Assembly (NCBI GenBank): GCA_041489155.1 | Contig: JBGPQP010000003.1 | Span: 47,744 to 111,743, forward strand | Source: Candidatus Aenigmatarchaeota archaeon | Lineage (GTDB): Archaea; Aenigmatarchaeota; Aenigmatarchaeia; QMZP01; QMZT01 | Length of the DNA: 64,000 bases | Reading direction: 5' to 3' | Shown: positions 47,912-60,140 of the stretch, piece by piece | Numbering within the stretch: the stretch's first letter is position 1 | Layout: every line of letters begins with the position of its first letter | The notes under the pieces: generated by a model | What the model saw: the letters and a program-made list of their open reading frames with translations, nothing else | Told to the model about the DNA's origin: nothing | Databases searched by the model: none | Program-made: the position numbers and the translations under genes

Positions 47912-48017
47912 GCTAAGCACCTCCTAAATCACTTGGTGTTTGTTTTCGCTATCGTCCGCTAGCTTTCTTGCTAGTATTGTTAATTAAGTTTATGGAAAGA
48001 GTATTTAAAAGTTAAGG

Positions 48018-50090
48018 TCATGCTCCGTAGAATTCTTCAAGGCTGCCAGTTATCGCTTCTCCTATCCTTTCCTGTTGCGTCGGGTCGTTGAGCAGATTGG
48101 CTTCCTGCAGGTTGCATATGAAAGCGGTTTCTATCAGCACAGCAGGCATCCTCGCATCCATGAGGACGCCGAGATCAGCGCCTCTTATGCCCCTGTCGGC
48201 GGTCCCCAGCGTGTTGACCAGCAGAGGTTGTATGTCTTCGGCGAGCTGCCTACTGCTCTGAAACATTGCATTGGAGCTGTAGCAGTTGCCTACGTTGCAT
48301 ATGTCAAGCACACGATTGTTTTCGGCGTCAGCCGAACACAAGCAATAAACAAAGGTCTCAGTTCCCACGCCATTACAGTTTTGGTCGCTGTTCGCATGTA
48401 TGCTTATGAAGATGTCCGCGTTGTTGTTATTTGCGACCGCCGTTCTCGCTGCGAGGTCAAGACTGGAGTCATCGTTTCTCGTGTATATCACCCTTGCCCC
48501 TCTGTTTGTCATTTCTGCGCCTATCATCCTTGCTATCTGGAGGTTCACTTCCCTTTCCACTATGTTTGTTCCGGATGGGCCCAGAGCACCCGGATCCCCT
48601 CCGCCATGGCCGGGGTCCAGCACGATTGTCCTGCCGGCGAGCGTAAGGCCAGGAGCTGTCGTGCCTCCTGGCGGCGTGGTTCCGCTTGGCGGAGTAGTTG
48701 TCCCGCCTGTGCCAGAAGGAGTCTGGCATAAAGACCATTTTGACTGCAGCTCATTGCCAACATACTCAGCCAGGGCCTTGTAACCGTCGGAGTTAAGATG
48801 TAGATGATCTCCGGCATCGTATCCTGCTATCAGCTTGTCCGTATCGCCTTCCTCCGTTTTTTCGTAGGCATCAATGACATCATAACCTGAACCTTTCAGC
48901 CATGTGTTAACCTCATCAATTTTTTGCTGCTTCGTCGCATCCCAGTTGGCGGAGTCTTTGCAGGGAAGAAGTGTGAGATAGACGACATGCACCTTCTTCT
49001 TGTCTGCCTCTTCGTGGATTTTTTGGAGGTTACTAATCACGTCATTCGCGCTTGCTCCGCCAGCTATGTCGTTGACTCCGCCCAGAACAACGACAGTATT
49101 ATACTTACCGTTCTCAGCGATGTCGCTGTTTTTCGTTATGTTGTCCAGCATCTGCGCCGTGGTTCTGCTAACCTCAGCGTCGCTGAAAATCACGTTTGGG
49201 CATATCGGTTTGTTGACCAGGTAAGGAGAGTACCCCATCGTGAGGGAATCTCCTAGCAGCAGGGTTTTGCCCGCGCTGCCGGCCGGGGCGCAAGATTTTC
49301 CGAAGTTCACCAGGAAGACCATGCTTATCGGCTCGAAGGCAATGCTTGCTCCGTTGGCAATAGGGAAAGTTTTTGACGTATCGGTTACCTTGACAGTCAC
49401 CGTGCAAGGTTCTGTTGCGTTGTCAGAGGTGGCGACGATTTCATAGCTGCCCTCTTTCGTGTTCAGCGTGCTTGTGCAGCCTTTTATCCTCCCGGCGACA
49501 TCTATCGCCTTTTCATGCAGGGAGAAAAAGTCGAACCCGTACACATTCTCCATCTTTGATGAAATTTCAACCATTATCGTTTCCCCGCCGACGCCATGGC
49601 TGGCGGTCTCTTTCAGGTAAATTGTCCTGTCACCTTCGGTGCTGACGTTCATGCCGGAGGCAGTTTCTGTGATGTTCATGCCCGGTTCGCTGAAGTGCGG
49701 CAGGACGACGTCCTTGCCCATGAAACTGTAGAAAGCATTGGTGCCGCTTGTGTAGCCGTTAAGGTTTTTCAGTATCTCAGTCTTGAGATTCTTTTCAATC
49801 TCGTTTTTATCCTTAACGAGCTCACATGCGCTTCCTCCGCTTTTTTTGCCTAGGTCGTACATCGCCTGGTAAACAGAGTAGGTCAGTGCGGTTTTTGCAT
49901 ACACTCTTGCGAACTTCAGGGCGTATTCGGCAGTGTAGACGTTGCTTTTTGCCTGTATTTCTGTTTTCTTGCTCGAACCTATTACAGTGCCAAAGAGCGG
50001 CAAGGAAACGGACAGCGCTCCCACTACCATTATCAGAGCTATAAGGAATCCTATTATGTAAATTATACCTTCCTGTCCTTTCATTGCCAT
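48018..50090 (-). CDS. Pilin-like N-terminus + SGNH/GDSL esterase + N-acetylmuramoyl-L-alanine amidase (Amidase_3)
   Basis: MKG|QEG followed by a hydrophobic helix. SGNH motifs GDSLT, GGVND and DHLH. T/P/G-rich linker. Amidase motifs LDPGHGG.DPGA, EREVNL, SIHAN and PAVLIETAF. Confidence 0.9.
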   Translation of the reverse strand: MAMKGQEGIIYIIGFLIALIMVVGALSVSLPLFGTVIGSSKKTEIQAKSNVYTAEYALKFARVYAKTALTYSVYQAMYDLGKKSGGSACELVKDKNEIEKNLKTEILKNLNGYTSGTNAFYSFMGKDVVLPHFSEPGMNITETASGMNVSTEGDRTIYLKETASHGVGGETIMVEISSKMENVYGFDFFSLHEKAIDVAGRIKGCTSTLNTKEGSYEIVATSDNATEPCTVTVKVTDTSKTFPIANGASIAFEPISMVFLVNFGKSCAPAGSAGKTLLLGDSLTMGYSPYLVNKPICPNVIFSDAEVSRTTAQMLDNITKNSDIAENGKYNTVVVLGGVNDIAGGASANDVISNLQKIHEEADKKKVHVVYLTLLPCKDSANWDATKQQKIDEVNTWLKGSGYDVIDAYEKTEEGDTDKLIAGYDAGDHLHLNSDGYKALAEYVGNELQSKWSLCQTPSGTGGTTTPPSGTTPPGGTTAPGLTLAGRTIVLDPGHGGGDPGALGPSGTNIVEREVNLQIARMIGAEMTNRGARVIYTRNDDSSLDLAARTAVANNNNADIFISIHANSDQNCNGVGTETFVYCLCSADAENNRVLDICNVGNCYSSNAMFQSSRQLAEDIQPLLVNTLGTADRGIRGADLGVLMDARMPAVLIETAFICNLQEANLLNDPTQQERIGEAITGSLEEFYGA

Positions 50091-50515
50091 GTTATCATCT
50101 CTACATATCCGGTTTTCCCGCCAGGCATCGGGATGGTGCTCTTCAGCAGGGTCGATGCAGGCGGCTCGCCTGATTTTTTGACAAGTTCGCCTGAGCTCTT
50201 CGCTTTGACATAGTAGTTTTTGTATGTCGCAAGCGTCTCGTCCATCTGCCTGCTCAGCTCAGGAGGCATGTTCGTCGCCTCGAACATGCCTATCACCTCG
50301 GCGTTTGTGTACTCGCCTTTCCTGGCGTTAAGGAAGCCGAGAATCGAGCTTCCCTCGTCCTCCATTTTCAGGACTATGTCCACATCGCCTCTTATTTTTA
50401 TGATGTTGCCTATGTTGAAGATGTACAGCAGAAGGATGACCAGAAATATACCTCCGCCTACCACAAAGGTCAGCGCCACGGCTTCCAGGGGTGAACCTCC
50501 CTTAAATTTCGACAT
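50081..50515 (-). CDS. Pilin-like membrane-anchored protein
   Basis: MSKFKG|GSPLE followed by a hydrophobic helix (class III signal-like, with E at +5). Confidence 0.7.
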   Translation of the reverse strand: MSKFKGGSPLEAVALTFVVGGGIFLVILLLYIFNIGNIIKIRGDVDIVLKMEDEGSSILGFLNARKGEYTNAEVIGMFEATNMPPELSRQMDETLATYKNYYVKAKSSGELVKKSGEPPASTLLKSTIPMPGGKTGYVEMITWQ

Positions 50516-50939
50516 AGAGACCCCCCACGCTTACTGTGCCATCAGCGTGCTCTATAGAGACAAATATCATGTGGTCGTAGTCGGATAAAGTGTCGGTATC
50601 AGCGAAGCCCCATTTCCTCCCGCTCCCGAAATCCGTCACCGCCGCGTCTATCGACGGCTTTTCTATGCCGCACACTTCCTTTATCTCCTTGTCCCTGTTG
50701 CTGTCGAGGAAGTTCTCTGTTATGAAATAATCCTTGTCGCCGCTAAGCCTGACGAAGCAGTATGCGACAGAATGGGCGGCCTCGACTTTCTTGATGTCGT
50801 CCATCGCCGTCTTTACCGCCCCGCTGATTTCAACGTTGCCAATCACTATAAGTATGAGGCCAGCTATGCCTGCGGCGAACAGCAGCGATTTGTAGACGTT
50901 CTCTAAATCCGTATACCCCAAACCTTTCTTTGTCATCAA
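50502..50939 (-). CDS. Pilin-like membrane-anchored protein
   Basis: MMTKKG|LGY... followed by a hydrophobic helix; Cys pair. Confidence 0.65.
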   Translation of the reverse strand: MMTKKGLGYTDLENVYKSLLFAAGIAGLILIVIGNVEISGAVKTAMDDIKKVEAAHSVAYCFVRLSGDKDYFITENFLDSNRDKEIKEVCGIEKPSIDAAVTDFGSGRKWGFADTDTLSDYDHMIFVSIEHADGTVSVGGLYVEI

Positions 50940-50944
50940 TCCAC

Positions 50945-52129
50945 CTAACAGAACATGAACTGCTCGTAATAGCCGTTCACGTTTTTAACGTAACTGACTA
51001 TGCGGCTGTTGACTCTTTTTTCAAGCACGTCCCACGTGCAAGGGTATGTGCCGCCGCTGCCGCCCGGAACGCAGTTGTTTATCACCACGCCTGGCCCTCC
51101 GTTGTAAGAGCCCGAGACCAGCCTGATAAGATTTTTATCGTCAATGTACGCGTACTGCTTGTCCTGTATCATCTTTACAAGGTACTCCAGATATTTTACC
51201 CCGTATTCTATGCTCGCCTTCGGGTCATACAAACCCTCCGGTTGTCCTGTGTACTTCATTTCCACCGCAGTCGTATAAAGCGTCTGCATCAGGCCGTAGC
51301 TCGCCGATATTCTGGTTTGGGCGATGTATTTGGTATAATCCCTTCCGGCCTCCTTTTCACCGCTCCTCGCGGGATTCTGCCTGAACCACTCCTCTATCGT
51401 CATTCCGTTTGCGGCCGTCATCACGTATTTCTGGTCATAGTTCTTCAGTTTCCCGTCTTCCTGCAGCTTGTAATCGTAATTTGGCTCGTATCTGTAGGCG
51501 TTCTTGTTCCAGTTGCTTTCCTGCTCGATTATGGCTGCCACGAGATTTGCCGCACCGGGTATCAGGTTTTGCAGCTCGCTTGCTCCGAGCACCTCGAAGA
51601 GCACGCCGCTATGTGCGTCGGGAATGCAGCCGCCTGCCTGGGAAAACGAAGAAAAGCCGCTTATCTCGACCAGTCCGCCCGGCACCTTTTTCAGCATGAT
51701 CACCCTCACGTCTGGGAGCGCCAGCTTGCCTGTCGTCTGGTCGACCTTCACGTCGCCTATTATGGGTACCTTGTCGCCGCTTATCTTGTCGCCGGTCCCG
51801 TAATACTTGAGCTGCACGTAATAATTGCCTATGGTCTTGAGCCCGAGGCTGGAAAGGAACTTCTTTATCGCGCCGTACCTTTCTATGTTTATATCATACG
51901 TATCGTTCAGGTCCTTGATTATCGAGCCGCTGTCCATCGACGACAGGAAAGAGACGTAAGTCGCTATGTCGTTCGCTATCAGCGCCATCTTCCCCTCAGG
52001 GCTGCTCTGGAGGGTCGCCTCGGTCTTGGAGTAGAGCGTTGTGACGAGCACTCCGACGAGCAGGATTGAGCTTATAAAAACTATCATTATGCTTACGGCG
52101 AGCGAGGCTGCTTTCATGACCATATTCAT
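50945..52129 (-). CDS. Membrane-anchored/pilin-like protein with a C-terminal SLT lytic transglycosylase domain
   Basis: MKA|ASL followed by a hydrophobic helix. SLT motifs AIIEQES, SYGLMQ, LYDP..SI.YGVKYL, SYNGGPG and YV..V. ATGA overlap with the upstream gene. Confidence 0.9.
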   Translation of the reverse strand: MNMVMKAASLAVSIMIVFISSILLVGVLVTTLYSKTEATLQSSPEGKMALIANDIATYVSFLSSMDSGSIIKDLNDTYDINIERYGAIKKFLSSLGLKTIGNYYVQLKYYGTGDKISGDKVPIIGDVKVDQTTGKLALPDVRVIMLKKVPGGLVEISGFSSFSQAGGCIPDAHSGVLFEVLGASELQNLIPGAANLVAAIIEQESNWNKNAYRYEPNYDYKLQEDGKLKNYDQKYVMTAANGMTIEEWFRQNPARSGEKEAGRDYTKYIAQTRISASYGLMQTLYTTAVEMKYTGQPEGLYDPKASIEYGVKYLEYLVKMIQDKQYAYIDDKNLIRLVSGSYNGGPGVVINNCVPGGSGGTYPCTWDVLEKRVNSRIVSYVKNVNGYYEQFMFC

Positions 52130-52689
52130 GCACATTCTGTTACAGAGCGGATTACTTCATCGCTGCTGGCAGGTGACTTGAGATCTATCGTCTTTATGCC
52201 CTTGCTGTCCGTGAAGATTTGATACCTGAAGCAGTAGGATCTTCCTCCTTCCAGCACAAGGTGGTTCCCGCCCGCCGGCAGCTGGAATCTGTAGGGTATG
52301 CCGATGCAGTAAGGGTTGTCCGCGACAGCGCTTTCGGTGCTGAGCCATGCGTAATCGAAGACCACGAGTATGTGCGAGGGCTTGGTGATGTCGCATTTAA
52401 GATTGCCCAGCGAAAAGCCGCCTATCTTGCTCGCCTCCATCCAGTTGTTGGTGACGATTATCTTTTTCACGCAGCTGCCCGCTATCACCGGCTGGTATCC
52501 GCTGTCCTTGTCCTGGCCGAACTGCCTGAAAAGCGAATGGAAGGCCTCGTTGACATCGAGGCCGCATTTGTCGTACTTGATTGCGTTTATCGCATAGAGA
52601 ATCGAAGGCAGTACGAAAAGGCAAATCATCACGATTACGAAAACGAAAATAATCTTTTCCTCTATGGCCAGCGTGCCAACCCTGCTCAT
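52126..52689 (-). CDS. Pilin-like Cys-rich membrane-anchored protein
   Basis: MSRVG|TLAIE followed by a hydrophobic helix; several Cys. Confidence 0.65.
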   Translation of the reverse strand: MSRVGTLAIEEKIIFVFVIVMICLFVLPSILYAINAIKYDKCGLDVNEAFHSLFRQFGQDKDSGYQPVIAGSCVKKIIVTNNWMEASKIGGFSLGNLKCDITKPSHILVVFDYAWLSTESAVADNPYCIGIPYRFQLPAGGNHLVLEGGRSYCFRYQIFTDSKGIKTIDLKSPASSDEVIRSVTECA

Positions 52690-52733
52690 AAAATTATTTT
52701 ATTTCCGGAAACTTAAAAACCAATGAAGTGCCG

Positions 52734-52874
52734 TCAGGGTTTGAAGAGGAACGGGAATATCTTGCTAAGCACAGCAGTCCAGCCGCCTGACATGTAGACT
52801 ATTAAGGCTATTGCCCCCATGAGGAGGACGAGGCCGATCAGCACGTCCAGAAACGGTAAGGAGCCTTTTTTCAT
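52734..52874 (-). CDS. 46-aa micro-pilin-like protein
   Basis: Not in the ORF track. MKKG|SLPFLDVLIGLVLLMGAIALIVYMSGGWTAVLSKIFPFLFKP; GGTGA SD. Confidence 0.7.
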   Translation of the reverse strand: MKKGSLPFLDVLIGLVLLMGAIALIVYMSGGWTAVLSKIFPFLFKP

Positions 52875-52887
52875 GCCAGCATCACCA

Positions 52888-53001
52888 TCACATCACGCCC
52901 ATCAACTTCAGCGAGGCCAAGATAGCTATGACCACCATCAGCAGCGTAAGCATCTGCAGACCATGCGCCGCAATCAAGTCCCCCAGACCAAAGCCTCTCA
53001 T
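52888..53001 (-). CDS. 37-aa micro-pilin-like membrane peptide
   Basis: Not in the ORF track. MRG|FGLGDLIAAHGLQMLTLLMVVIAILASLKLMGVM; TTTAAA element upstream. Confidence 0.55.
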   Translation of the reverse strand: MRGFGLGDLIAAHGLQMLTLLMVVIAILASLKLMGVM

Positions 53002-53110
53002 GATATCTTATTGGTTTTGGGATTTTAAATCCGCTTCAGAGCATAACAGAAGCGGATATGTGAAGGCTGGATATTCTAGCATTTAAGAAAGATTGTTCCA
53101 AATATTAATC

Positions 53111-54943
53111 ATGAAAGGCCTCGTTGACGAGAACGGCAAAATACTGGTTGAGGTCCTGATGTTCATGGTATTTTTCGCCTTCGGCGCCGCGATGTTGCTC
53201 GGCGCCTCGAAGCCTGTCGCAGGCTCGCAAAACTGGGTATGCAGCATCATACCCTGCCCCTTCGACAAGACCGCTTTTTACACGCAGACCGCGAACGAGT
53301 CCGCGGAAGCGGTCTGGTGCGCGATAAACTCGGTGGCGATGGGCAAGACCGACGAATCAGAGAGATGCATAAAATACGTCGAGGGCAAGGCGCCGCAGCA
53401 GTTCGCGAAAGATGCGAATGACAAGGTCATAAAATCGACCGCGGCAACCTTCAGCTGCAGCGTGGGCAAAGTGGATAAAAAGGTGGATGAAGCAAAAGGC
53501 AGTTTTTCCTGCGTTGTGACACAGTTCGAGCTGCCGCAGGACGTCTCGAAAACCAACAAGCTATTGCCCGGCTACGGTGACCCCAAATATCTCGTCTATT
53601 TCAACGAGTTCCCCGACGGCGAAGACGAGTCTTGGTCAACTTGGGCTGCCGTAAATGTCTTATTAACAGTCATACCAGTGGGTAAAATCCCTATTATAGG
53701 CAAGTTTGCTGAAGGCATTATCATGAAACCGCTTAAACTTTTAGGGAAAGGAGTTCTCAAATTAGGGAGTAAAACAATCGAATGGGCGGGAGGAAAGCTC
53801 GCTTTGAGAGCCGCTGAGTTTGAAATAAAAGAAAACGGAGAAATTTTCGTCAAAGGAATGTTAAAATCAGCTGCAGGCAAAATTGTTGGCAACAGTGTTA
53901 TATGGTATGACGGAGCAGAAGCGGCTATTGAAAAAACATTAGTCAGCGATATCGAAAGGGCTGCGGTGAAGGAAGGAATAGAAAAGACAGGCGTCGGCAT
54001 CGCTGGCAAAACCAGATATTATGCGCTTACATGGCTGGCGAGGGCTGCCGAGAAAGGGAGGCTGAAATATTTCTCAGATGATATAACCAAGATGTGGGTC
54101 AAAGCCGCCAACAAGGCAGGCCTTCTGACCGATGATGCCGTCGAATACCTTGTTAACAACAAGATAATCGAAAACAAGGGTCTGATAGCCTTCGTTGCCG
54201 AAGAGGAGCAAAAAGTCTTGGCAAACGAATTTACTCCGCTTCTGCAGAAACTATCAAAGAGCGGAGTCGCACAGCAGGATATAGATCAGATTGTAACTGT
54301 TCTGGAAAAAAGCCTGAAATCAGGCGGCGTTTCACCCATGACAGCTCAGGACCTTATAGAGCTACAGAAGGTCGCCGCTCCCAGCCTGGCGCAGAAGCTT
54401 GTAACTGCAGGAGTGGTGAGGCCAGGCGTGACTGCTTTCATACTTACGCCCAAATACATACTCGTTGGAAACACGGTAGGAGAAGGTCTCCAGTCCATTG
54501 ATGAAGTACTGGGCCAGAAATATCTTGCTGAAAACATCAAGGAAAAGACGCTGTTATTCAAGGACGCTGACCAGAGGATTGCCAGGCAGTTGCCTTTCAC
54601 GCAACCAATCTCCTTTTTGGAGACGGTAAAACTCAGAAAGCCAGTGCTGGAAAAGGACAAAAACTTTTATCTTGCAAGCCCATGCAAGGCCGATTTGTAT
54701 GTATGGAAATCAACCGACACAAATATATGCAAGGACGGCAAAAGAAGTTGCGTGTTGGTCAACGTCGACTTTAAAGATTATGGCAAGAACATGGACGCCA
54801 ATTTCTGCTACACCATGGGCGGACCGATAGGTGGAGGATTTCTAGGCCTAACACCTTGGCCGTGTCACGGCGTTGCATATCTAGATCAAGTTCCTCTGGT
54901 CAGCGATTTTTTAGACTGGATAGGCGTCGGTGAAAAATGCTAA
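53111..54943 (+). CDS. Large membrane-anchored protein with an MKG pilin-like start, Cys-rich flanks and a central helical domain
   Basis: MKG|LVDE followed by a TM segment; Cys-rich N- and C-terminal parts; Cys-free K/A/G-rich core. Confidence 0.75.
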   Translation: MKGLVDENGKILVEVLMFMVFFAFGAAMLLGASKPVAGSQNWVCSIIPCPFDKTAFYTQTANESAEAVWCAINSVAMGKTDESERCIKYVEGKAPQQFAKDANDKVIKSTAATFSCSVGKVDKKVDEAKGSFSCVVTQFELPQDVSKTNKLLPGYGDPKYLVYFNEFPDGEDESWSTWAAVNVLLTVIPVGKIPIIGKFAEGIIMKPLKLLGKGVLKLGSKTIEWAGGKLALRAAEFEIKENGEIFVKGMLKSAAGKIVGNSVIWYDGAEAAIEKTLVSDIERAAVKEGIEKTGVGIAGKTRYYALTWLARAAEKGRLKYFSDDITKMWVKAANKAGLLTDDAVEYLVNNKIIENKGLIAFVAEEEQKVLANEFTPLLQKLSKSGVAQQDIDQIVTVLEKSLKSGGVSPMTAQDLIELQKVAAPSLAQKLVTAGVVRPGVTAFILTPKYILVGNTVGEGLQSIDEVLGQKYLAENIKEKTLLFKDADQRIARQLPFTQPISFLETVKLRKPVLEKDKNFYLASPCKADLYVWKSTDTNICKDGKRSCVLVNVDFKDYGKNMDANFCYTMGGPIGGGFLGLTPWPCHGVAYLDQVPLVSDFLDWIGVGEKC

Positions 54944-54989: not shown

Positions 54990-55562
54990 TTATACAACAC
55001 CGTTATTATAAAGATTGTTTATAGAAGGTAAGAAGTTCCCACCTCTAGTAGATATTTTTAAAGAATCTCTCATGCTTCCGTTTATATTTAAATCGGCTTG
55101 CATCATCTCAACTGAAGAATTACTCCTAATATTAATGATTGTCACATTACTTATATCTTGGGGGTATTTTTCTAAAAGTCTTCTGGCCTGTGTTCTAAAT
55201 TGATCAATGCTTCTAAACAAACCTAAATCCCCCCTGCCCCCTAGGTTCGTTCCCATTACTTTTAAAAGGTCTTCCTCTTTTCCTGGATTTGTTCTAACAT
55301 GCTGAAGCATGTCGTAAAAGGCATAAACAGCTTTTTTGGGCGTGTTAAAATCGTATGACGCATCAGGAATTCCATCGACGTAAAGAGTTTCGCCGATGCC
55401 GTAATTGCCACCGGCCGCGGCCGAGCCAGAAGCCCCATTCGCTTGAGGAGTTTTGCCGGTGCCGTAATTATTGCTGCCAAACGCCTTTCTTCCCAAAAGC
55501 AGCGTACCGGCAGCTGTACCCAATCCTAACCCAAGAAAATGCCTTCTTGTTATGTTTCCCAT
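54990..55562 (-). CDS. Secreted protein with a twin-arginine signal peptide
   Basis: ITRRHFLG followed by a hydrophobic stretch and KAFG; AT-rich. Confidence 0.7.
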   Translation of the reverse strand: MGNITRRHFLGLGLGTAAGTLLLGRKAFGSNNYGTGKTPQANGASGSAAAGGNYGIGETLYVDGIPDASYDFNTPKKAVYAFYDMLQHVRTNPGKEEDLLKVMGTNLGGRGDLGLFRSIDQFRTQARRLLEKYPQDISNVTIINIRSNSSVEMMQADLNINGSMRDSLKISTRGGNFLPSINNLYNNGVV

Positions 55563-57572: not shown

Positions 57573-60140
57573 ATGAGGGCATGGGTTTTGTTTTTAGCGG
57601 TTGCAATATTGTTATCATTCTCGCCTTTCCAGGCGGAAGCGGTGAGCCAGAACTGCGCGCCTACAGCGGGCGACTGGTTCGTTAACGAAACAGTCTTCTG
57701 CGAGAACGAGGACATCGTGTTCAGCGGCAGCCTGCTCGTCAACGCTTCGGGCAACATAACCTTCCTGAATTCGAAGCTTGGCTTCAACTCGAGCACGGAC
57801 GGCGAGTTCGGCATAGAGGTGAACGGCTCATTCTATTTGATAGGCTCGAGGATAGCGAACAGTTCGGATACGAACAAGGCTTACACCTTCTTTTCAAACG
57901 CCGGCGCGCAGGTAGAGATGCGCGATTCCGTGATATATCACTGCGGCTACGGCACAACCGACAGCAAGAAGATGGGAGTTTATCTGAAATCAGACGGCTC
58001 CAACATCACCAACATGACCTTCACCGGCAACAACGCAGCGCTTATGGTCGTTTCAAACGGCAACAACATCTCGGGCAGCCGCATGAGCGCCAACAAATAC
58101 GGCCTCGATATCAGAGGGTCGGGCAACACCATCACCAACAACACGATATCGGCCAATAGCATCTATCCTCTTTATCTTTTTGGCGGGAGCGTCGTTTTCA
58201 GCAACAACGTCATCGAGGACAACACAATGGATGACTACATCTTGTTCGAGCTGAACGCCTCGCTGATAAGCGGCAACCGCTTCTCCCGCAACTCGGAAGG
58301 CATCAAAATAACGGGAAGGAACGACAACGTGACCGGCAACCTTTTCAGCCTCACCAACAGCACTGCTGGCAGCGCTGTTTATTTTTCGGATGCTGAAAAC
58401 ATAAGATTCACCAGCAATACGCTCCTTGATAACAGCGTCTATGGCGTCTACTTCCAGCGCACCAAAAACACGGTGATGGAAGGAAACCACATAAACAGGA
58501 CCAGCAGCATGGACTTTTACCTGCTTTCCGCTGCGAACAACATCATGAGCAATAATAACTACACCAAACTGGTGAGGAAATGGAGGCTTGACCTGCGGGT
58601 GTTGGACAACAACAATACCGCTGTCGGGCTCGTGAGCGTCACAATAAGGAATAATTTATCAATGTCAGTTTTCAGCGGTTCTACAGATACGCAAGGAAGG
58701 ATTAATTATCAAATCATCACGGAATTCATGCAGAATGAGTCCGGTGCCTGGAATTACAACCCGTTCTCAGCGAATGCGAGCAAGACAGGGTATTACGGGA
58801 ACTCGACCGCCTTCAACCTGACGAGCGACCTCTCGCTTGTGATGATAATCACCCCCGTTCCGCCTCCGCCGGAAAACGAAACCTTCAACTTCACGGTAAT
58901 CTCGCCTCTTAACGACACCTACACGAAGCGCAACCTTACGACTACTGGCATGCTCCTGCTCTCGGTAAGCAGCGAAAAGAATATGAGCTGGTGCAATTAT
59001 ACGTTCGGCAACGCTTCAGCCGAGCTTACCAAGACGGACCCGAAAGATTTCCGCGCCTACATAAACGTCAGCGCTTTCGAAGGCGCATACGCGGTTGGCT
59101 TTGTCTGCAGCTCTGTCGACGGGATAACGAATTCGACGGAGGCGTATTTCTCGATCTATCCAGCATATGAATGCACCGACAACGACGAATGCGACAGCGA
59201 CCAGAGATGCCTCCTTTACACGTGCGTAGATCTCGAATGCGGCTGCGGCTACGCATCGAATCATGCATGCATCGATTACGCATGCTGCAAGGACAGCGAC
59301 TGCAGCGGCAACCAGACCTGCGACCTGGAGGGACACGTGTGCGCCGCGGTTTCGTGCGGGTGCCCTGAAAAAATATCCAATCACCAGTGCAGCATACCGC
59401 TCGGCTACTGCTGCAACGACCTCCTTTGCGAGGAAAACGAGACCTGCGAGGACCACGCATGCGTGGAAAGGACGCTTTCCTTCAGAATGCCCGAAACCCT
59501 GGTTTACGGGGAAAATGTCACCGTACTGGTCTTGGACCAGGACGACAACCCTGTCAGCAACGTGGGCATAGACGTCAAATACCCTGACGCCGACCCGCCA
59601 ATAATAGAGTCTTATTACACCGACGTGAACGGCAAGGCCGAGATCCCGATAAAATACTGGGGCAGGGTCAATTTCATTGCCCGCAAGGCGAAATATTTCA
59701 CAGGCCTTTCTAACGCCCAAATCCCCGAGCCCATGAACTGGCTTTTCGTGCTTGAGATAATAGTCCTCATAGGCGCTGTAGCGGGCATAGCTGTGATAGC
59801 GCCGAAGTTCATAAAGAAGGGCGGCGTTTCGCTCGGCGGGCTCGGCGGAGGGCCGTTCAAGCTCGAGAAAACGGTTAGCGGTAACCGCGTGATGCTCACG
59901 CTGGTCAACAAGACCAAGAAGAAGCTGCAGGACATAACGGTCCGCGATTCCGTCCCCAACGGCGCGTTCCTTGACAGCAGGCTGATGCCCAAGGTCGAGC
60001 CCTTCGATCAGGCAAACGTGATGCTCACGTGGGAAATTCTCGAGCTGGGGCCGAAGGAAGAGGTGACAATCGAATATGAAGCCCGCGCCACCAACAAGGG
60101 CTTCTCCGTGCTGTGCGACAACAAGGAATACAGGGCCTAG
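57573..60140 (+). CDS. Cell-surface protein: signal peptide, parallel beta-helix, Cys-rich repeats, TM helix and a cytoplasmic C-domain
   Basis: Asn-rich NosD-like repeats, many NxS/T sequons, three C..D.DC...Q/E.C repeats and a TM helix near the C-terminus. Confidence 0.85.
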   Translation: MRAWVLFLAVAILLSFSPFQAEAVSQNCAPTAGDWFVNETVFCENEDIVFSGSLLVNASGNITFLNSKLGFNSSTDGEFGIEVNGSFYLIGSRIANSSDTNKAYTFFSNAGAQVEMRDSVIYHCGYGTTDSKKMGVYLKSDGSNITNMTFTGNNAALMVVSNGNNISGSRMSANKYGLDIRGSGNTITNNTISANSIYPLYLFGGSVVFSNNVIEDNTMDDYILFELNASLISGNRFSRNSEGIKITGRNDNVTGNLFSLTNSTAGSAVYFSDAENIRFTSNTLLDNSVYGVYFQRTKNTVMEGNHINRTSSMDFYLLSAANNIMSNNNYTKLVRKWRLDLRVLDNNNTAVGLVSVTIRNNLSMSVFSGSTDTQGRINYQIITEFMQNESGAWNYNPFSANASKTGYYGNSTAFNLTSDLSLVMIITPVPPPPENETFNFTVISPLNDTYTKRNLTTTGMLLLSVSSEKNMSWCNYTFGNASAELTKTDPKDFRAYINVSAFEGAYAVGFVCSSVDGITNSTEAYFSIYPAYECTDNDECDSDQRCLLYTCVDLECGCGYASNHACIDYACCKDSDCSGNQTCDLEGHVCAAVSCGCPEKISNHQCSIPLGYCCNDLLCEENETCEDHACVERTLSFRMPETLVYGENVTVLVLDQDDNPVSNVGIDVKYPDADPPIIESYYTDVNGKAEIPIKYWGRVNFIARKAKYFTGLSNAQIPEPMNWLFVLEIIVLIGAVAGIAVIAPKFIKKGGVSLGGLGGGPFKLEKTVSGNRVMLTLVNKTKKKLQDITVRDSVPNGAFLDSRLMPKVEPFDQANVMLTWEILELGPKEEVTIEYEARATNKGFSVLCDNKEYRA

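Follow-up and report, generated by a model that had tools for sequence, protein, structure and literature searches.

For most DPANN archaea, neither the hosts nor the mechanisms of contact are known. The gene described here lies at 48018..50090 (-) in a 64,000-nucleotide stretch of contig JBGPQP010000003.1 from a Candidatus Aenigmatarchaeota archaeon (assembly GCA_041489155.1). This stretch is referred to as the window, and all positions refer to it unless another contig is named. The encoded protein of 690 amino acids (aa) is read, with moderate confidence, as a modular prepilin-like surface protein of this tiny DPANN archaeon of symbiont type, in which a carrier module is followed by an SGNH esterase domain, a linker and an Amidase_3 domain. 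Its gene closes a murein-directed operon.

A class III signal consists of a short leader that ends in K/R-G/A and, behind it, a hydrophobic helix of about 20 residues. In the modular type IV pilins of S. sanguinis, namely PilB with its vWA module and PilC with its lectin module, such a signal precedes a pilin module and a functional module joined to it by a linker, an order shared by the 690-aa protein (PMC8179133, available part). Peptidase modules are found among the 264 modular-pilin architectures reported there (Raynaud et al. 2021), while the words "archaea" and "peptidoglycan" are absent from the available part of that article. In contrast to the bacterial modular pilins, the present protein is archaeal, its carrier is larger, two-lobed and devoid of a Pfam or InterPro pilin signature, the attached enzymes are directed at murein, and several carriers occur in one operon. 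A further likeness is seen with the GspK-GspI-GspJ complex (3ci0). GspK carries a foreign domain in its pilin sheet, and in the archaeal carriers M23 and PG_binding_1 are inserted in a comparable manner. At 9% identity, however, the carrier module has no sequence similarity to this system, and a type II secretion context is missing here.

Murein hydrolases of archaea, DPANN included, are already in print. Woldo and Danwoldo are peptidoglycan hydrolases of Halogranum salarium (Strock et al. 2025, PMC12352652), and GH23 transglycosylases were reported in Woesearchaeota (Vigneron et al. 2022, PMC9723730). In the available parts of both articles, archaea that lack murein are described as secreting murein hydrolases, which is read as antagonism to or predation on bacteria. 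According to the same parts, the former survey required a classical wall-binding domain together with Sec/Tat signals, whereas the latter covered large GH23 proteins only. In the main texts, to which the comparison is confined with supplements excluded, neither article contains "pilin", "pili" or "amidase" (for Strock et al., "Amidase_3"), and "SGNH" is absent from Strock et al. The available part of a 2026 survey of archaeal type IV filaments contains none of the words transglycosylase, hydrolase, M23 and amidase (PMC13705601). In main texts of the literature, supplements again excluded, nothing was found that describes archaeal prepilin-like carriers bearing murein-directed domains. In this archaeal order, the hydrolases ride on a conserved prepilin-like carrier family within one operon, and the gene described here adds two enzyme domains to the carrier system, an SGNH esterase and an Amidase_3. 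What sets the locus apart is this combination of domains, the loss of M23, the wider connection of its SGNH clade with murein hydrolases and its divergence as an island. The gene is composed as follows.

48018..50090 (-): whole gene, modular prepilin-like protein of carrier module, SGNH domain, linker and Amidase_3 domain
50001..50090 (-): prepilin-type (class III) signal and hydrophobic helix, residues 1-30, MAMKG followed by QEGIIYIIGFLIALIMVVGAL, read from the sequence
49296..50090 (-): carrier module, residues 1-265, DPANN family with a predicted two-lobed pilin-like fold and a conserved Cys204/Cys229 pair
48774..49256 (-): SGNH (GDSL_2) esterase domain, residues 279-439, with Ser282, Ser308, Asn340, Asp428 and His431
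48645..48728 (-): linker rich in Thr, Pro, Gly and Ser, residues 455-482
48036..48626 (-): Amidase_3 domain (N-acetylmuramoyl-L-alanine amidase), residues 489-685, with His494, Glu512, His565 and Glu654

The reading frame is open over 690 codons, while the gene call in the public protein collection (P0002) starts at Met3 and comprises 688 aa. Lipase_GDSL_2 matches residues 279-439 (E 6.1e-12; score 46.8 bits, cut-off 32.9). Amidase_3 matches residues 489-685 (E 4.1e-49; score 167.4 bits, cut-off 27), with positions 1-173 of the 174-position model covered. These Pfam matches and the motif positions bear out the order of pilin-like N-terminus, SGNH, linker and Amidase_3 that an initial annotation had read from the sequence. 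The motifs it had named are likewise in place: block I is GDSLT at 280-284 with the nucleophile Ser282, block III is GGVND at 337-341 with Asn340, block V is DHLH at 428-431 with the DxxH pair Asp428 and His431, and the linker string TPPSGTTPPGGTT occupies residues 466-478. In the amidase, His494 (DPGHGGGD), Glu512 (VEREVN), His565 (SIHANS) and Glu654 (LIETAF) are aligned with the same amino acids in two amidases of solved structure, 4rn7 and CwlV (1jwq). The first three are the metal ligands and Glu654 is the catalytic glutamate, as the initial annotation had described, and the set is intact.

The full architecture of module, SGNH and Amidase_3 is rare. In a collection of 5.8 billion proteins it was found in two, P0002 itself and P0003, which is 62% identical and has a similar linker; the remaining matches of 139 concern the amidase part alone, covering 13-38% of the query. 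The proposed search for the same architecture elsewhere thus returned the complete combination in P0003 and no others in this collection. A search of genome contigs for related loci with the whole protein gave no relative, and a profile search with alignment A5 gave nine loci. A single-sequence AlphaFold2 model of the whole protein (predicted local distance difference test, pLDDT, 37.9) was discarded. A combined alignment, A2, placed block I of the short SGNH homologues wrongly and was not used for folding.

The N-terminal 265 residues constitute, judged from their distribution, a conserved carrier family of their own. With the 690-aa protein as query, matches were obtained in 52 of 61 related genomes, nearly all within residues 1-265 and mostly as stand-alone open reading frames (ORFs) of about 250-420 aa; no Pfam family matches this module. 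The initial annotation had overlooked this carrier family, as well as the M23 enzyme normally present in the operon. In alignment A3 (31 sequences), the K-G/A leader is followed by the hydrophobic helix, with K4 in at least 90% of rows; a YSVYQA motif, an invariant Tyr113 and the Cys204/Cys229 pair are also seen. An AlphaFold2 model of the module built from A3 (pLDDT 86.9, predicted template modelling score 0.77) comprises a membrane helix at 6-29, two long helices and two lobes of helix plus sheet. In VIA-align its best match is GspK, the tip of the type II secretion pseudopilus (3ci0; Z 7.5, root-mean-square deviation 2.9, 96 residues), followed by EpsI/EpsJ (Z 6.3), the competence pilin of Thermus thermophilus (Z 5.9) and XcpV/XcpW (Z 5.3). 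Pilins and pseudopilins make up 14 of the 22 top rows, and each of the two lobes matches pilins. Because Z is at most 7.5, a range common for models without a clear match, the fold is regarded as pilin-like with modest support, unproven.

The label "pilin" has backing from three sides: the K-G leader followed by Q and the hydrophobic helix, both kept in A3, the pilin-like fold, and two homologues of the prepilin peptidase (Peptidase_A24) in the genome. Assembly ATPases and platform proteins are represented by five T2SSE and six T2SSF matches above cut-off. In the ESM Atlas, the 30 nearest clusters are hypothetical archaeal (DPANN) proteins of about 250 aa without Pfam families, which serves as a lead only.

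The operon upstream of the gene contains the following members.

50081..50515 (-): 144-aa prepilin-like protein, carrier of the relatives' Peptidase_M23 protein of about 330 aa, with the M23 insert of about 190 aa missing (alignment A7)
50502..50939 (-): 145-aa prepilin-like protein (MMTKKG followed by LG...), kept in the relatives' operon
50945..52135 (-): 396-aa prepilin-like SLT protein, SLT at residues 196-353 (E 4e-14) with the strings EQES, GLMQ and YNGG
52126..52689 (-): 187-aa membrane-anchored protein, encoded by the operon's first long gene and kept in relatives
52734..52874 (-): 46-aa prepilin-like ORF (MKKG followed by SLPFLDVLIGLVLLMGAIALIV...), candidate short pilin heading the operon, no Pfam family

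The partner transglycosylase gene that the initial annotation had invoked is therefore present at 50945..52135 (-), in the same operon as the SGNH-amidase gene. Starting from the 187-aa gene, successive genes overlap by 10 nt, are separated by 5 nt, overlap by 14 nt and overlap again by 10 nt, the last overlap being that of the gene 48018..50090 with its upstream neighbour. All proteins of the operon start with K/R-G/A and a hydrophobic helix, except for the 187-aa protein, which has R-V-G. In the relatives G017, G013, G004, G002, G036 and G045, the gene order is g187, SLT carrier, g145, the protein of about 330 aa, module and Alba; SLT is found on homologues of the 396-aa protein and Peptidase_M23 on the protein of about 330 aa. 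At the position of the 46-aa ORF, relatives have pilin-like ORFs of 76-125 aa. In NCBIfam, neither the SGNH part nor the remaining operon proteins are matched, save for sub-threshold hits of the SLT protein to MltF and ArlG. The balance of this evidence favours, to a reasonable though not a high degree, a conserved and translationally coupled operon of prepilin-like carriers bearing enzymes for bacterial murein, which the gene closes.

Own murein appears to be absent from the organism. Its genome comprises 1.13 Mb in 39 contigs and is 89.65% complete, and the operon holds its only SLT, Lipase_GDSL_2 and Amidase_3 matches. Within this incomplete genome, no FtsW/RodA match and no genes of murein synthesis were found, and FolC accounts for the single Mur_ligase_M match (346.5 bits; cut-off 162.65). 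Within the limits of genome completeness, the operon enzymes would be without a substrate of the cell's own; since murein synthesis genes were not found, they appear to point outward, at bacterial walls. The organism is present in sediment metagenomes, and pieces identical to the window occur on short contigs of low depth in two further sediment DNA runs.

The enzymes carried by these proteins vary among relatives. Across the 61 related genomes, Peptidase_M23 is matched in 37, SLT in 32, Lipase_GDSL_2 in 15 and Amidase_3 in four; in the last gene of the operon, Lipase_GDSL_2 is found in G000 and G045 only. A Pfam scan covered the module proteins of 32 relatives, 25 of which have no family above cut-off. 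Four carry PG_binding_1 (L011 in G003, L051 in G014, L052 in G001 and L053 in G022), inserted inside the module between the helical part and the sheet (23.8-32.8 bits, cut-off 23). Of the other three, one ends in SLT (G046, 623 aa, E 2e-27), one ends in SGNH (G045, 521 aa) and one carries PKD, YkuD and Amidase_3 (G036, 1203 aa). Other fusions in the order join Amidase_3 to LysM (G017) or Peptidase_C25 (G011). Judged from these fusions, the enzyme domains on the carriers are exchangeable.

A swap of the peptide-cutting enzyme is seen in the lineage of the window: M23 was lost and the amidase gained. According to alignment A7, the 144-aa protein corresponds to the M23 carrier with its insert of about 190 residues cleanly gone and the last strand, TIPMPGGKTGYVEMITWQ, retained. 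Peptidase_M23 has no match anywhere in the genome. On the metagenome contig L068, the gene for P0003 lies in the same operon, and the upstream carrier of 146 aa has no M23 domain either. The absence of M23 and the presence of SGNH plus Amidase_3 hence coincide in the window genome and in L068, and the amidase may have replaced the M23 endopeptidase as the peptide-cutting enzyme of this sublineage.

The window (48018-52874) was compared with L068 (1-3492), giving the amino-acid identities and synonymous divergences (dS) listed here; values of dS above about 1.5 are saturated and rough only.

TrpRS (flank): identity 97.8%, dS 0.38
Alba (flank): identity 94.1%, dS 0.19
SLT protein: identity 61%, dS 2.7
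g145: identity 39%, dS 1.9
g144: identity 49%, dS 1.7
Module: identity 61%, dS 1.9, ratio of nonsynonymous to synonymous divergence (dN/dS) 0.15
SGNH: identity 61%, dS 2.1, dN/dS 0.13
Linker: dS 0.84
Amidase: identity 74%, dS 0.67, dN/dS 0.29

Module, SGNH and amidase are all under purifying selection, and are for this reason probably all functional. The pilin-hydrolase operon forms a divergent island, with dS of 1.2-2.7 as compared to 0.19-0.38 in the adjoining Alba and TrpRS. Faster protein evolution does not explain the island, since dS in the operon exceeds that of the flanks several-fold. The pattern instead suggests that the cassette was replaced by recombination with a more distant allele, and one boundary is suggested in the vicinity of the linker, where dS begins to drop, reaching 0.67 in the amidase. 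Recent transfer was also considered by base composition, which gave no signal: the GC fraction at 48001-50000 is 0.513, inside the window range of 0.41-0.56.

The substrate of the SGNH domain is the least certain step of the explanation. Among 1.84 billion representatives, 1,940 relatives were found at E <= 1e-3, of which only P0003 falls below 1e-30. The clade profile A4 was searched against the PDB, and statements on solved relatives refer to the best 60 of 103 matches. Acetyl-xylan esterases of the FjoAcXE type and their kin come first (9kr0, 7tog, 7toj; E 5.5e-41 to 8e-31), followed in order by unnamed Bacteroidetes GDSL proteins, TesA, platelet-activating factor acetylhydrolases (PAF-AH) and sialate O-acetylesterase. 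PatB is among them at E 5e-6, and Ape1 is absent. The FjoAcXE-type enzymes (7tog, 7toh, 7toi, 7toj), which together with 9kr0 and 9kqz are the closest solved SGNH domains, are carbohydrate acetyl-esterases with a surface-exposed active site (PMC9105624). They have a GNSI motif and an N-terminal carbohydrate-binding module (CBM) for glucuronoxylan (PMC9105624), whereas the present domain has GDSL, no CBM and the context of bacterial walls rather than plant polysaccharides. By these profile matches, the domain falls among the superfamily's esterases for short acyl groups or carbohydrates.

The initial annotation had invoked SGNH esterases of the Ape1 type. Ape1 of Neisseria and Campylobacter has an SGNH fold with a Ser/Asp/His triad, as seen here, and works with lytic transglycosylases, which need a free C6 hydroxyl on N-acetylmuramic acid (MurNAc) such as Ape1-type esterases supply; de-O-acetylation is described as a prerequisite for their action in the available part of the source (10.1101/2021.09.23.461501). 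According to that part, Ape1 also has a CBM35 beside the SGNH domain. The 690-aa protein, in contrast, contains no CBM family such as CBM35 in Pfam and has Ser at block II, and its SGNH match is one continuous stretch of 161 residues. With CBM35 lacking, Ape1 absent from the best 60 of 103 matches and acetyl-xylan esterases in first place, membership in the Ape1 type was not upheld.

A link to murein emerges from the fusion partners. Pfam was used to scan 125 of the 149 best SGNH relatives other than P0003, the 24 left out being of at most 330 aa. Eight of the 125 bear a murein-cutting domain (SLT, M15, M23 or M74). SLT is fused to SGNH in P0140, P0188, P0220, P0239 and P0259, four of which also have a T4SS_pilin segment, and P0220 combines a CE4 polysaccharide deacetylase with SGNH and SLT. 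Peptidase_M15 occurs in P0135, along with a weak match to the carrier module (E 1e-4), Peptidase_M74 in P0189 and Peptidase_M23 in P0236. P0150 combines T4SS_pilin, a weak SLT match (E 0.0083) and SGNH. The proteins P0140, P0150, P0188, P0239 and P0259 thus unite T4SS_pilin, SLT and SGNH of the same clade in one chain; unlike in the 690-aa protein, their pilin segment is T4SS/VirB2-like (PF18895) and an amidase is missing. The pairing of SGNH with a transglycosylase recurs outside the archaeal pilin carriers, and the fusion partners lend indirect support to a link between this SGNH clade and murein hydrolases.

The following mechanism is proposed. The leader would be cut by the prepilin (class III signal) peptidase of the genome, and the proteins would be displayed on the cell surface, either in the tip complex of a short pilus or pseudopilus, in the manner of minor pilins, or plainly anchored in the membrane. 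There, the enzyme domains could jointly attack the bacterial wall, whether of a host, of prey or in the form of debris: SGNH would take O-acetyl groups off C6 of MurNAc, or off another acetylated envelope glycan, SLT would cut the glycan strands and the amidase would strip the stem peptides. The idea of esterase, amidase and SLT as one set for dismantling murein, put forward in the initial annotation, holds as far as the shared operon, the intact catalytic residues and the outward-pointing enzymes are concerned; its esterase part suffers in that the SGNH domain is not Ape1-like. A role as O-acetyl-peptidoglycan esterase is plausible but unproven from sequence, and O-acetyl-peptidoglycan as the actual substrate is put at slightly below an even chance. 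If SGNH does de-O-acetylate murein, it would be a counter-measure to a widespread protection of bacterial walls and represent a new, non-Ape1 type of O-acetylpeptidoglycan esterase.

The operon of pilin-borne SGNH and amidase suggests that the lineage attacks or feeds on bacteria. A wider proposal, offered tentatively and with rather less confidence than would be needed to prefer it, is that a "wall drill" resembling a type IV filament is built by Aenigmatarchaeota and, if the Atlas lead is followed, by other DPANN archaea too. Four to five minor-pilin-like carriers would form a tip complex holding exchangeable murein enzymes (SLT, M23, amidase, SGNH deacetylase, YkuD and PG-binding) and open the walls of living bacterial hosts. 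The locus would act as a rapidly diverging cassette subject to recombination, and its domains would be exchanged in the course of an arms race against O-acetylation and other modifications of the wall. If true, an archaeal phylum so far without hosts would gain bacterial ones, together with a tangible apparatus for contact.

Several results weigh against murein as the common target of a pilus-borne enzyme set, and most of them feed an alternative. The carrier model has no Foldseek match in the PDB at E <= 1e-3, in addition to its low Z scores. No second recognisable domain is present in most of the 125 scanned SGNH relatives, and five of them have phage tail-fibre markers, namely Peptidase_S74 (P0168, P0180, P0183, P0185) or Mtd_N (P0230). 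A PHROG scan of 33 relatives found tail-fibre, tail-spike or tail-protein regions outside SGNH in four (P0130, P0151, P0159, P0161). The nearest solved relatives deacetylate xylan (7tog, 7toj, 9kr0) or sialic acid, and Ape1 is not listed among them. These phage markers and solved structures speak for the same surface protein with a different SGNH substrate: another envelope glycan, such as capsule, O-antigen, teichoic acid or a secondary wall polymer, would be deacetylated, as phage tail-fibre esterases do to reach or recognise the wall, and the SLT domain would not be unblocked. This alternative is somewhat unlikely, given that the same SGNH clade is fused to five different murein-cutting families and that the domain is placed between a murein-associated carrier and a murein amidase. 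A lipase or phospholipase acting on the membrane of the target cell would agree with the Pfam name (GDSL-like lipase), the label "lipase" of phrog_6102, and TesA and PAF-AH among the profile matches. It is nonetheless very improbable, as the top solved relatives are carbohydrate acetyl-esterases and the fusion partners are wall enzymes and glycan-binding modules, with no membrane-active domains.

The position of block II, where the initial annotation correctly noted that no Gly was evident, is Ser308 (EVSRTT), while Gly is found in the 62%-identical P0003 and in the G045 homologue. This also counts against an active esterase, and the domain could be weak or inactive and serve as a mere spacer or binding domain. 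Alternatively, the exchange could mark a shift towards acetyl transfer as in the C-terminal domain of OatA from S. pneumoniae (SpOatA-C), where Gly is likewise replaced by Ser and the oxyanion hole has two components (PMC9487903, available part). Both possibilities together have a low probability, since Ser, Asn, Asp and His are intact, dN/dS is 0.13, the oxyanion contact is a backbone amide and three of 32 short homologues (P0166, P0229, P0190) also have Ser. Since these homologues share the residue and the available part of that source describes the OatA domain with the same substitution as active (PMC9487903), Ser at block II does not appear to disqualify the domain from SGNH activity.

Location is a further point against a filament, because the genes for ATPases, platform proteins and peptidases lie on other contigs, none of them beside the operon in the window. 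Instead of a pilus with a specific host, the operon could be a feeding tool, in which membrane-anchored enzymes digest wall debris of dead bacteria in sediment for amino sugars and peptides. The origin from sediment metagenomes fits this explanation, as does the small genome, which implies reliance on building blocks from outside. Prepilin-type starts across the operon (R-V-G in the 187-aa protein) and the pilin-like fold of the module argue against it, and so does the divergent island between near-identical flanks, which is expected of surface structures under diversifying pressure; on balance, it is considered unlikely. That the archaeon remodels its own murein or pseudomurein layer, for which the presence of hydrolases as such is the sole argument, is extremely improbable in view of the missing FtsW/RodA match in the 89.65%-complete genome and the assignment of the only Mur-ligase-like match there to FolC.

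The Amidase_3 domain belongs to the same family as CwlV (1jwq), the C. difficile amidase (4rn7), AmiC (4bin) and phage endolysins, and has all of their metal-binding and catalytic residues. It differs from these enzymes in a Cys-rich insertion and in the pilin-like carrier. The domain matches the phage endolysin families phrog_435 and phrog_2742 and stays below every NCBIfam equivalog cut-off (CwlD 108.8 against 221.55; AmiA, AmiB and AmiC far below). The insertion, as compared with 4rn7 and 1jwq, lies at 48270-48350 (-), comprises about 27 residues (approximately 581-608) with four cysteines (CLC...C...C) and is kept in P0003. The self-inhibiting helix of E. coli AmiA/B/C, which is released by M23-like (LytM) activators, would fall at about this place.

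Further prepilin-like starts are found beyond the operon. Upstream of the 46-aa ORF, a possible second tiny prepilin-like ORF of 37 aa was read by eye at 52888-53001 (-), starting with MRG followed by FGLGDLIAAHGLQMLTLLMVVIAILASL. A divergently transcribed 616-aa protein at 53093-54943 (+) has the prepilin-like start MFQILIMKG followed by LVDENGK and a hydrophobic helix, and matches no Pfam or NCBIfam family; at the corresponding position, G017 has a pilin-like protein of 885 aa (L017 6750-9407). The 190-aa protein at 54990-55562 (-), which matches no family, opens with RRHFLGLGLGTAAG, a signal of the twin-arginine type. A protein of 855 aa encoded at 57573-60140 (+) has a right-handed beta-helix (NosD-like) and an Ig-like domain, and could be a polysaccharide-degrading surface protein. 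A similar beta-helix protein of 843 aa lies near the operon in G017 (L017 6-2537).

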